Source of the DNA: an uncultured Verrucomicrobiae bacterium
GTDB taxonomy: Bacteria > Verrucomicrobiota > Verrucomicrobiia > Chthoniobacterales > UBA10450
Assembly: GCA_963735805.1 (NCBI GenBank)
Contig: CAVTMK010000002.1
Span: 192,001 to 256,000, forward strand
Length of the DNA: 64,000 nt
Direction of reading: 5' to 3'
Positions 53,008 through 54,803 of the stretch are shown piece after piece; the first letter of the stretch is position 1; each line of letters begins with the position of its first letter. Both the position numbers and the translations under genes were made by a program. The notes under the pieces are model-generated. The model ran no database searches. It had not been told where the DNA came from and saw only the letters and a program-made list of their open reading frames with translations.

Positions 53008-53508
53008 ATGACTGTTGCACTCCGCGAAGTTACGAAGGAAGATCTGCCGATTTTTTTTGAGCATCAGCTGGATGCCGAGGCGACACGTATGGCGGCGTTC
53101 CCCAGCCGCGACCGCGACGCCTTTATGGCGCATTGGGCCAGAATCATGAGTAAGGAGACCAACGAGACCGGAATCCTAAACACCATCCTCGCGGACGGCA
53201 CCGTGGCAGGCAACGTCGTCTATTGGGAAGCGGCGGGGGAGCCAAACATCGCCTACTGGCTCGGCAAGACACATTGGGGGAAGGGGATTGCTAGTGCGGC
53301 CCTGGCCCAATTCTTGACCAAGATAGAGGCGCGACCAGTTTACGCGCATGTCGCAAAGCACAATTTCGCTTCGATACGTGTCTTACAAAAATGCGGATTC
53401 CAACTTGCACGAGAGGATATGTGCGATGGCGATGATGGCGAAGAACTTGTTATGGAGCTGCGCTCCGATCGTTGCGCCACGGGCGCCAATAAACCCACAA
53501 AGACCTAA
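53008..53508 (+). CDS. Cassette 1: RimJ/RimL-type GNAT acetyltransferase
   Basis: YWLGKTHWGKGIA, NFASIRVLQKCGF; stop codon lies inside the attC R'' box. Confidence 0.88.
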   Translation: MTVALREVTKEDLPIFFEHQLDAEATRMAAFPSRDRDAFMAHWARIMSKETNETGILNTILADGTVAGNVVYWEAAGEPNIAYWLGKTHWGKGIASAALAQFLTKIEARPVYAHVAKHNFASIRVLQKCGFQLAREDMCDGDDGEELVMELRSDRCATGANKPTKT

Positions 53509-53537
53509 CCAATCGATGAAGCCTCTATCTTCTTTAA

Positions 53538-53753
53538 AGGGGCGTTGATTTGGTGCAAAAGGGTGGCAGGTGCGCGATCCTCGATGAAGCGGCTTCTGGT
53601 TAGACCAAGAGCGTCCGTTAGTTCGATCCGTGCCTGCCCTTGGGCGTGTGAAGTAAACTCGAACAGTTACTGGAGCGACCAAGCCGGCCTTAAACCCCGA
53701 GGGCAAGACCGGCCTGGCCAGCTCGCATCTAAGAAGCAGGAGTTATTTACCAC
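53538..53753 (+). ncRNA. Predicted IS110 bridge RNA
   Basis: Two stem-loops with internal loops matching the target (53581-90, 53615-21) and the donor (53663-71, 53732-36); 5' end approximate. Confidence 0.85.
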
Positions 53754-54683
53754 GTGAAAGAGGAACTTGTCTATTTAGGAGTCGATATTGCCAAGTCACA
53801 TCTGGATGCGGCGATTGGAGCACAAAAACATCGTTTCTGTAACGACAGGGTCGGCCATCGACAGCTAATCAGGTGGATTAAGCAAACTGAGGCTACAGTT
53901 CAGGTGATTTGCGAATCGAGCGGCGGTTATGAACGCAGATTAGTCCAGGCGCTTGCTGGTGCGCGGATCAAAGTCAGTCTGGTTCAAGCCAACCGGGTTC
54001 GGCAATTTGCGCGAGCGGCGGGAATCCTGGCGAAGACCGATCGCATCGACGCGGAAGTACTGTGCGAGTTTGGCAAGGTGATGCGGCCGCAGACAGTGAC
54101 CGCTGGGACGTTGGAGCAAGAACATCTGCGAGAGTTGGAGAGCCAGCGCAGGCACTTAACTCATTTGCTGGTGATGGAACAAAATCGCGGTGCGCGTGTC
54201 AGCAATGCCTCGGTGGTGAGATTGAATCGCAGTTTGATCAACCAAATCAAAAAGCAGGTTGAAAGACTCGATCTACTGATCAAAGAGCACATTGAACAGT
54301 CGCCCCGTCTATCTGCCAAGGCAGAGAAACTGACCTCAATCAAGGGAGTTGGGGAACGCACGGCGGCCTTACTGCTGGCGCAAATGCCCGAGTTGGGACA
54401 ACTCAATCGTCGTGAAGTTGCAGCTTTGGTCGGAGTCGCGCCGTTTAATCGCGATAGCGGAAAGATGCGCGGCAAACGCGCGATCTATGGTGGACGGCGT
54501 TTCGTTCGACATGGACTTTACATGGCCGCATTAGTCGCCGCGCGTCACAACCCAATCCTGCGCAATTTTTATCTGCGATTGCGAGCGGCTGGCAAACCGG
54601 CCAAACTCGCCCTCACTGCGACCATGCGAAAACTGCTGATCGTGCTCAACAGTGCGCTCAAATCCGATCTAATCTATGCTTGA
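53754..54683 (+). CDS. IS110-family transposase / bridge recombinase
   Basis: GVDIAK, ESSGGYE, KTDRIDA (DEDD), GVG, VGVAP..RDSG catalytic serine, MRKLL. Confidence 0.95.
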
Positions 54684-54803
54684 AACCAAGACAGTTACTA
54701 ACGGTCCCATTTCGAGATGCGTTCAGTGTGTTTGCGCCGACACCCCGCCGTGACTTATCTCCGTCTCGTTAGGGAGCGGCGTGCCGGCTACAATTCACGT
54801 CAA

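Follow-up and report, generated by a model that had tools for sequence, protein, structure and literature searches.

The DNA analyzed here is a stretch of 64,000 nt (the window) from an uncultured Verrucomicrobiae bacterium of soil (GCA_963735805.1, contig CAVTMK010000002.1, 192,001–256,000 of the forward strand), and all features described below lie on its + strand. At 53008–53508 is a cassette ORF for a GNAT acetyltransferase (Pfam Acetyltransf_3, E 8.2e-20), whose stop codon falls within the R'' box of an interrupted integron attC site. The left arm of this attC (53503–53523), delimited from the sequence, an alignment of intact attCs and attC HMM matches, comprises R'' (ACCTAAC, 53503–09), a spacer, the L'' box that is also the left target (GATGAAG, 53515–21) and a target core CC (53522–23). 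The right arm (54700–54774; HMM match C2:246698–246778) begins with the right target AACGG (54700–04) and continues with L' (GACTTATC, 54752–59) and R' (GTTAGGG, 54768–74). In contigs of two other runs the arm found after this GNAT cassette is a different one. Between the arms lies a 1176-bp IS110-group insertion sequence (53524–54699), made up of a 230-nt 5' non-coding leader, a gene for a 309-amino-acid DEDD/Tnp recombinase and a 16-nt 3' end; its limits are set by intact attCs that read GATGAAGCC followed by AACGG, and by a second genomic copy (G000:C1:22470–23644) that is 98% identical and occupies the same position in another attC.

The recombinase gene (53754–54683) has a GTG start with GGAG ahead of it at 53739–42. 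Its product matches Pfam DEDD_Tnp_IS110 (PF01548, 74.4 bits) and Transposase_20 (PF02371, 67.7 bits), and in the PDB matches only IS621 transposase (8wt6, E 1.8e-34) and ISCro4 (E 5e-33), both over residues 1–306; the best match in the plasmid collection is 44.6% identical, and the names there are generic only. Both domains expected of the IS110 group are present: a DEDD RuvC-like domain at the N-terminus and, at the C-terminus, a Tnp domain that has the serine (SG) motif. Aligned to IS621, the protein retains the N-terminal G-x-D, KTDxxDA and SG, the roles of these residues in the recombinase being presumed here. The non-coding ends are long upstream (230 nt) and short downstream (16 nt from stop codon to element end), a layout given as a mark of the IS110 group in section 12 of PMC11208160 and in the abstract of PMC11187229. 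The original prediction of an IS110/IS621-like recombinase with an upstream RNA is borne out by this leader and 3' end, by the two Pfam domains and by IS621 and ISCro4 as best solved relatives; it had also called the protein compact, and the length of 309 amino acids is correct, but this is merely about 5% under that of IS621 (328-residue chain).

The right end of the element (54691–54699) consists of the left donor ACAGTTA and the donor core CT, and all 25 relatives' rows with an identified right end share it (ACAGTTGCT in one, GCAGTTACT in another). No subterminal inverted repeat of ≥7 bp is present in the terminal 60 nt, where the longest exact inverted match is 6 bp and none of 8–10 bp occurs with ≤1 mismatch. 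By the ORF criterion used here 18 of 35 related copies lack an intact ORF and a further copy encodes just 272 amino acids, so much of this lineage is, to judge from its sequences, decayed. A search of 355 family genomes finds the leader in 46, there are at least 120 protein clusters of ≥85% identity, and the clade is common in soil Verrucomicrobia.

In-silico removal of 53524–54699 restores a 96-nt attC, as had been predicted, which has an R''/R' pair and is like the intact attCs of this genome; the fold of its bottom strand is a single long imperfect hairpin, which the insertion would split. The flank family has 42 HMM matches at E < 1e-3 in the genome, and a one-strand array of attCs (C2:1261378–1277528) reaches an integron integrase in divergent orientation (C2:1278239–1279177) that is full length and scores 470.7 bits (TIGR02249, cut-off 265). 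The marks of attC sites, namely inverse R''/R' core sites, L''/L' boxes, an imperfect bottom-strand hairpin and arrays beside intI, are all found, and the flanking repeat is by its sequence, fold and integrase array a real attC family.

Other copies had been expected to lie at attC L'' sequences, and all close copies examined do so, with 22 distinct left and 25 AACGG right junctions. Each attC-type left junction adjoins the L'' word, and the orientation is the same throughout. Among 50 metagenome right junctions of this right-end type, 25 continue with AACGG (23 distinct flanks, 18 of them with the attC L' motif) and 16 with AACCR or AACAG; contigs of two other runs hold further upstream contexts of the element. 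Insertion into attC is site- and orientation-specific, as it is for the IS1111-attC elements.

A consensus fold of the leader was obtained with RNAalifold from an alignment of 24 related leaders (A1). It contains a target-binding stem-loop (53563–53641; outer stem 53563–79/53625–41, inner hairpin 53589–600/53604–14) and a donor-binding stem-loop (53657–53743; outer stem 53657–60/53740–43, inner helices 53675–78/53723–26, 53683–89/53716–22 and 53701–04/53712–15). The consensus has 43 pairs, with 96.3% of cells paired versus 31–45% with slid partners. Compensatory changes occur at nine pairs, all in the outer stem and inner hairpin of the target loop, and none of 500 shuffles reaches any of the five measures used; the donor-loop helices are 95–99% paired and nearly invariant, so covariation speaks neither for nor against them. 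The single-sequence fold of the leader is ordinary (z = 0.05), and Rfam gave no match at E up to 1 in 52800–55400 or 55350–55750. Both stem-loops of the original prediction are recovered by the 24-leader consensus, but in its 13-bp donor stem (53648–60/53740–53) the inner 4 bp alone are conserved. A 118-nt contig from an RNA library matches 53572–53689 exactly; DNA carry-over is possible, so this contig does not show transcription.

Four strands in the two loops match target and donor, as is characteristic of leader RNAs of the IS110 group, and all four had been predicted correctly (53581–90, 53615–21, 53663–71 and 53732–36). The word TCGATGAAGC is present in the flank at 53513–22 and again at 53581–90, where the left target guide (LTG, 53581–53591) reads UC, then GAUGAAG, which matches the left target, then CG at the core-binding positions. 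The right target guide (RTG, CCGUUAG, 53615–53621) is the reverse complement of CT+AACGG (CTAACGG, 54698–704). The left donor guide (LDG, ACAGUUACU, 53663–53671) is identical to the right end, ACAGTTACT being found at 53663–71 and at 54691–99, and the right donor guide (RDG, AGAAG, 53732–53736) is complementary to the circle junction CT+TCT. The target 10-mer occurs three times in the window versus 0.30 expected, a count reached in none of 100 shuffles, and its third copy is in a neighbouring attC; the donor 9-mer occurs twice versus 0.07 expected, exceeding all 100 shuffles. The 7-mer CTAACGG on its own is ordinary (10 matches versus 4.9 expected). The match of the RTG to CTAACGG includes a T brought by the element, and the empty target CCAACGG has one mismatch to it.

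In the relatives LTG, RTG and RDG each change with their own flank or end, which is the covariation of guide and target that had been anticipated for homologues. The LTG word and the left flank, each of 7 nt, agree fully for the attC variants GATGAAG, GATGCAG and GCTCCAG and for the hairpin targets GAAGCGG, GCCGTGG, GAGGCGG and GACGTGG, and with one mismatch for (T)AAGCGG. The RTG and right flank form the pairs CCGUU/AACGG, GGUU/AACC, CUGU/ACAG, GUUGU/ACAAC and UCGUA/TACGA, and RDG AGAAG accompanies the left end TCTATC, as ACAAG accompanies TGTATC. Among these relatives three variants of the attC L'' box are targeted, as are at least five REP-like hairpins (at least 8 specificities), and the attC-directed copies cluster together, adjoining the REP-directed ones. 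By this covariation in sister elements the leader loops are, on the evidence of their sequences, naturally re-aimed at integron attC.

The core dinucleotide is a point on which the original prediction, with its right junction CTAACGG, needs correcting. The natural target core is CC, not CT, in intact attCs and in genomes of the genus, so that the unoccupied target is GATGAAG-CC-AACGG and CT is the core of the donor. CC is at the core in 23 of the 27 intact attCs of this genome, and the CC-core 14-mer GATGAAGCCAACGG is found in 74 of 108 genomes of the genus (306 matches versus 2 for a reversed control), whereas the CT-core 15-mer GATGAAGCCTAACGG is found in none of the 108. At 18 of the 22 distinct attC sites the left junction has CC, and every one of the 25 rows with a right end has CT at the right junction. 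The RTG does not pair with the usual target at its second core base, the second core-binding base of the LTG varies (G, C, U or A), and one decayed copy (L024) has CC in both target guides. In IS621 target and donor have the same CT core, with which all four guides pair; this feature is not a stated definition of the IS110 group, and it is not what is found here; guide pairing with the target's CT core on both strands is called "strongly preferred" for IS621 in section 8 of PMC11208160. A CC target core would recombine with a CT donor core. We suggest tentatively, giving it a little less than an even chance, that in nature this clade recombines a donor of core CT with targets that have a base other than T at the second core position (CC for the most part, CG or CA in some cases), always with asymmetric products in which the target base stays at the left junction and the donor T at the right. 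If so, donor and target may differ at the second core position, which would loosen the core constraint of IS621, and either the exchange leaves no randomly segregating core heteroduplex or the outcome of one strand alone is inherited.

An alternative keeps the same element and mechanism but takes a rare CT-core attC (GATGAAGC-CT-AACGG) as the true target, with an element of 1175 bp (53525–54699) and CT duplicated at both ends as in IS621; the empty site would then be GAAGCCTAACGG and the circle junction ACT+CTATC. Such a cut does leave CT flanks on both sides, the RTG CCGUUAG equals CT+AACGG in eight of nine lineage-1 leaders, the LTG ends in GCU in two copies (L033 and L035), and the preference of IS621 for CT cores described in PMC11208160 (section 8) would favor it. 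Against these points stand the counts of the CT 15-mer and the T-less 14-mer in the 108 genomes (the former is also absent from G000), and all seven intact neighbouring attCs that reach the site in other MAGs lack the T, reading CCAAC (six) or CCAAAC (one). The 1175-bp cut also puts the LTG one base out of register with all the relatives in A1 and needs a bulged RDG; if the element is taken as 1176 bp, RDG pairing is contiguous in every lineage. The cut at 53525–54699 with CT on both sides was overturned by the intact attCs and the family register, and we consider this reading unlikely.

Two further explanations concern the target and the guides themselves. The flank might be a REP-like genomic repeat that resembles attC but is not a working one, and the element an ordinary REP-targeting IS110 like IS621: the interrupted site is about 1 Mb away from the integrase, attC-like repeats are spread over at least 10 loci in the genome, and sister lineages target REP-like palindromes. 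We think this very improbable in view of the one-strand array that abuts the full-length, divergent integrase, the R'' (RYYYAAC) and R' (GTTRRR) cores with similarity between copies that ends at GTTAG (where the homologous flank at the second copy also stops), the cassette stop codon that sits in R'', and the single long imperfect hairpin of the bottom strand. That the guide-like matches are passive copies of the flank and end (nested-insertion fossils or chance) and do not direct targeting would accord with the single-sequence z of 0.05, with a 7-mer that is not rare and with a mechanism assigned by homology; it is scarcely credible when at least 8 guide words follow their own flanks at fixed columns inside a covarying stem-loop and none of 100 shuffles reaches the count of either the 10-mer or the 9-mer.

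We therefore favor the reading in which 53524–54699 is, very probably, an intact IS621-like (IS110-group) insertion sequence with an attC-aimed bridge RNA, to which we assign the mechanism of IS621 because of its homology to that element. By analogy, it would leave as a circle that joins ACAGTTA-CT to TCTATC; this junction, ACT+TCTATC, is the predicted one and the one consistent with the intact attCs, and the model implies an empty site GAAGCCAACGG together with it. The computed junction brings together a −35-like TTGAAA (54680–54685), which overlaps the stop codon and is present as CTTGAAA in all 11 right ends compared, and a −10-like TATCTT (53526–53531), conserved in the 24 leaders of A1; at a spacing of 16 nt these would form, only in the circle, a promoter for the bridge RNA and the 309-amino-acid DEDD/serine recombinase. 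The leader would encode a two-loop bridge RNA of about 180 nt, whose donor loop would hold the circle junction (through LDG ACAGUUACU and RDG AGAAG) and whose target loop would hold the attC L'' box, the LTG GAUGAAG-C(N) pairing with the bottom strand. Strand exchange at the two-base core would then place the element right after L'', always co-oriented with the cassette genes. Leader transcription, RNA–protein binding and catalysis are all presumed from this analogy. No circle or tandem junction (right end running into left end) was seen at 80 metagenome right-end loci, the pattern ACAGTTACT-N0-1-CTATCTT is in none of the 355 family genomes (assemblies rarely hold circles), and there was no circle joint among the Logan contigs compared.

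IS621 and its bridge RNA were described by Durrant et al. 2024 (PMC11208160; transposase structures 8wt6–8wt9). In the features of that account drawn on here, IS621 and the present element share a DEDD + Tnp recombinase (E 1.8e-34), a left-end RNA whose two internal loops carry the guides (LTG and LDG of 7+2 nt each, RTG and RDG), a CT donor core, a promoter split over the circle junction, and close relatives that aim at REP-like hairpins. The present element differs in its target, the integron attC L'' box, in its usual target core (CC, not CT, so that one RTG position mismatches the empty site), in its RTG of 7 nt (IS621 has 4, and PMC11208160 mentions other orthologues with longer ones), and in a protein of 309 amino acids. 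The ISCro4 bridge recombinase (PDB 9t56, E 5e-33), the second solved relative, is likened to it by protein alone. ISEc21, an IS110-type seekRNA element, likewise has its guide RNA in the upstream non-coding region, with the bottom-strand match 5' of the top-strand match, but as described in PMC11187229 it targets a conserved stretch of IS3-family transposase genes and belongs to a longer-protein branch (345–385 amino acids); ISMch6 is given there as its naturally redirected relative. The compact clade studied here provides, in nature, a set of guides retargeted to attC variants and REP hairpins that can be read from sequence, and for work on bridge recombinases its apparent CC/CT core tolerance is a lead.

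The IS1111-attC elements, for which Tetu & Holmes 2008 and Post & Hall 2009 are the papers reportedly cited, share the target. ISKpn4, ISPst6 and ISPa25, with their seekRNAs (Siddiquee et al. 2024, PMC11187229), are like the present element in belonging to the DEDD family, in a fixed position at one end of attC and in an element-encoded RNA that matches both target strands; as described in that paper, they differ in an RNA downstream of the gene, in subterminal inverted repeats (7–17 bp) and in two target matches in reverse order. Here the RNA is upstream, with only 16 nt downstream of the gene, no subterminal repeat is found, and among solved relatives IS621 and ISCro4 are the closest. The literature searched held no report of an IS110-group element at attC (ISfinder and the supplements of Durrant 2024, which may list such targets, were outside the search). 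The original prediction that attC specificity was gained independently of the IS1111-attC group is supported by layout, the RNA being at the opposite end and subterminal repeats missing. For integrons this would be a second kind of element able to freeze cassettes by splitting attC. A known RNA-guided mechanism is re-aimed here at a class of targets that had been tied only to another branch of the family, and attC would have been colonised at least twice by RNA-guided DEDD elements, in lineages that carry their RNA at opposite ends.

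Our analysis places an insertion sequence of 1176 bp at window positions 53524-54699, between the two arms of a repeat. The left arm, 21 bases immediately 5' of 53524, opens with the motif ACCTAAC (53503-09), within which a 166 aa GNAT acetyltransferase ORF terminates (53008-53508; Pfam Acetyltransf_3); the right arm, 75 bases 3' of the insert, ends in GTTAGGG (54768-74). The element consists of a 230 nt leader, a 309 aa recombinase ORF (53754-54683; Pfam DEDD_Tnp_IS110 and Transposase_20) and a 16 nt tail between the stop codon and the element's end, and no inverted repeat of 7 bp or more was found in its terminal 60 nt. 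The only solved relatives of the 309 aa protein are the transposases of IS621 (E = 1.8e-34, residues 1-306) and ISCro4 (5e-33).

The repeat flanking the element is an integron recombination site (attC). An HMM made from intact repeat copies gave 42 matches in the window's own genome at E < 1e-3, among them a same-strand array (contig C2:1261378-1277528) that reaches up to, and is divergent from, a full-length integron integrase (C2:1278239-1279177; TIGR02249, 470.7 bits versus a cut-off of 265). The window's site, which forms a small cluster with another attC (window 55421-55676), lies about 1 Mb from this integrase. Removal of 53524-54699 in silico leaves 96 nt, whose bottom strand forms a single long, imperfect hairpin that the R boxes close (-10.2 kcal/mol, DNA parameters). 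The genome has the element a second time, at C1:22470-23644, 98% identical and with an intact frame; the flanks of this copy are homologous to those of the window copy, and the likeness ends at GTTAG. The sequence CTCGTTAGGT at window 52989-52998, 10 nt 5' of the GNAT start codon, resembles the R' end of an attC further upstream whose remainder is degenerate; if so, the cassette cluster would start directly after ftsH (50675-52714). The neighbouring attC at 55421-55676 holds an insert of about 165 nt right after GATGAAGCCAAC, three bases past the IS site. Related inserts are found at C3:8739-8936 and, in a short form, at C2:1275866-1275995; those at the equivalent position of other attCs share the motif TCTATGT(C/A)GCT, and the insert, which has no Rfam match, might be another small element that invades attCs.

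The ends of the element were set by comparison with uninterrupted sites. Cutting it with CT on both sides was rejected, as this needs an empty site GAAGC-CT-AACGG; the corresponding 15-mer GATGAAGCCTAACGG was not found in the window's genome or in any of 108 genomes of the genus, and GATGAAGCCAACGG occurs in 74 of those 108 (306 matches versus 2 for the reversed control). GCCAAC stands at the insertion point in 11 of the 14 full-length intact attCs of the window's genome, and the core positions of its 27 attCs with a left arm read CC in 23, CG in two, and CA and CT in one each. All seven intact neighbouring attCs that reach the insertion point in other MAGs read CCAA(A)C (CCAAC in six, CCAAAC in one), none with an extra T. 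The same GNAT cassette is present in contigs of two other sequencing runs (seven differences in 223 nt in run X7), where ...GATGAAGC is joined directly to GAACGG... with no added base, although the right arm there is unlike the window's. On these readings the element is 53524-54699 and the target is GATGAAG-CC-AACGG. The circle junction proposed in the original prediction, ACAGTTA-CT-TCTATC, agrees with the boundaries set by intact attCs. In the two soil/plant runs (X5 and X7) the cassette of window 53300-53522 continues, without the element, as ...GATGAAG-CG-AACGG, in which CG is the exact reading of the core positions in the window copy's left target guide (LTG); an exchange of flanks among copies of the IS could account for this arrangement.

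The original prediction had read four bridge RNA guides in the leader, and every one of the strings it named is in place; the 10-mer and 9-mer matches far exceed chance, and the 7-mer match alone is not unusual. Among 355 genomes of the family, 46 hold leader matches (E up to 1e-5), and close relatives lie in Verrucomicrobiae/Chthoniobacterales MAGs. From 39 extracted copies we aligned the window copy and 23 relatives, chosen for full-length, non-identical leaders. In every row the 7 nt word that precedes the two core-binding bases is the same, or almost the same, as the 7 nt on the element's left side. This word is the attC L'' variant GATGAAG in the window copy and ten other rows, GATGCAG in L237, L248 and (with one mismatch) L236, and GCTCCAG in L243; at REP-like hairpins it is GAAGCGG (L241), GCCGTGG (L244), GAGGCGG (L245, L247) or GACGTGG (L254). 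In a lineage 57-61% identical it is (T)AAGCGG of the 19 nt palindrome ATCGTAAGCGGCTTACGAT, with one mismatch in most copies and two and four in L011 and L018. The right target guide (RTG) follows the right flank as the LTG follows the left: CCGUUAG goes with AACGG, CGGUUAG with AACC (L236; L248 fits AAC only), CUGUAG with ACAG, GUUGUAG with ACAAC and UCGUAAG with TACGA. The right donor guide changes with the left end, AGAAG accompanying TCTATC and ACAAG accompanying TGTATC; the left donor guide and right end are invariant across relatives (ACAGTTACT). Sister elements of the 57-61% identical lineage (L012, L019, L022, L256-L258) occupy this palindrome, which is perfect and appears to be a REP-like repeat family in their genomes; in L012 a similar second palindrome lies 40 nt downstream of the first.

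The consensus fold of the 24 leaders (RNAalifold) has 43 pairs in two stem-loops. Of its cells 96.3% are paired, versus 31-45% with partners slid by 1-3 columns, a control that flatters the fold somewhat because the structure was derived from the same sequences; none of 500 shuffles reached any of five fold measures. Nine pairs show changes on both sides. All compensatory pairs lie within the target-binding stem-loop, and the donor-loop helices are nearly invariant, so that covariation speaks neither for nor against them.

Counted as distinct sites, with the ambiguous L253 omitted, attC-type left junctions read ...L''-CC at 18 (window, C1 copy, L024, L029-L033, L231-L234, L239, L240, L242, L243, L248, L250), CT at two (L236, L237), TC at one (L249) and GC at one (L259; L035 is alike). 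All 25 rows in which a right end could be recognised terminate in CT. A metagenome scan for the right end, whose pattern itself demanded ...ACT and left the right-junction core outside its reach, gave at least 121 stretches; 80 loci were inspected, 50 of the element's right-end type and 30 of the sister type. AACGG follows in 25 of the 50 (23 distinct flanks, 18 with the attC L' motif), the rest being 16 with AACCR/AACAG, six with another continuation and three too short; a TAYGA-like continuation follows in 25 of the 30. In L029 (2189-2270) an upstream attC, broken off near model position 83 and fused directly to the L'' word, forms the left flank, which points to a deletion at the insertion point that removed sequence between two attCs. 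Two attCs of the window's genome hold left-end stubs, one of 16 bp (C2:1536734) and one of about 30 bp (C2:1261893). In the former (C2:1536709-1536821) the attC picks up directly after the stub, and in the latter (C2:1261860-1261915) the stub runs into unrelated sequence. Both stubs are remnants of earlier insertions, and one of them lies at the far end of the main integron array.

A nucleotide FastTree of the recombinase region (without the truncated L243, L249, L250 and L259 and identical duplicates; five long-branch copies with internal damage, L232, L233, L234, L253 and L255, are unreliable) separates the GATGAAG, GATGCAG and L033-type attC elements from the REP-directed groups by a branch of support 0.999, with the attC-directed L248 as first branch on the REP side (0.757). 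Under midpoint rooting, a provisional choice of root, a single change between REP and attC targeting would account for this. Decay is common among the copies: by the ORF criterion used, 16 of 35 have the 309 aa frame, one has 272 aa and 18 have none; both copies in the window's genome are intact. Public data hold no fewer than 120 protein clusters with identities of 85% or more, all named only "transposase".

By homology with IS621 (PMC11208160), the element would be excised as a circle whose junction would form a promoter (TTGAAA-16-TATCTT in the computed junction), and the donor and target loops of the bridge RNA would hold the circle junction and the attC L'' region, respectively. The difference from IS621 lies in the core, the element's donor being CT and its target usually CC. 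The RTG core reading is AG (= CT) in all but L024 (GG), and in the LTG the second of the core-binding bases can be G, C, U or A. Every copy with both ends seen (window, C1 copy, L029-L033, L231, L248) has CC at the left and CT at the right, which is not the outcome that a randomly segregating core heteroduplex would yield.

In the literature searched, attC targeting is ascribed to the IS1111 group alone (PMC11187229, PMC11089894 and PMC9229058). We class the element as a new IS621-like bridge-RNA element whose natural target class is, against that literature, new for its group. Its layout is the one that PMC11208160 and PMC11187229 give for the IS110 group and differs from that of the IS1111 group.
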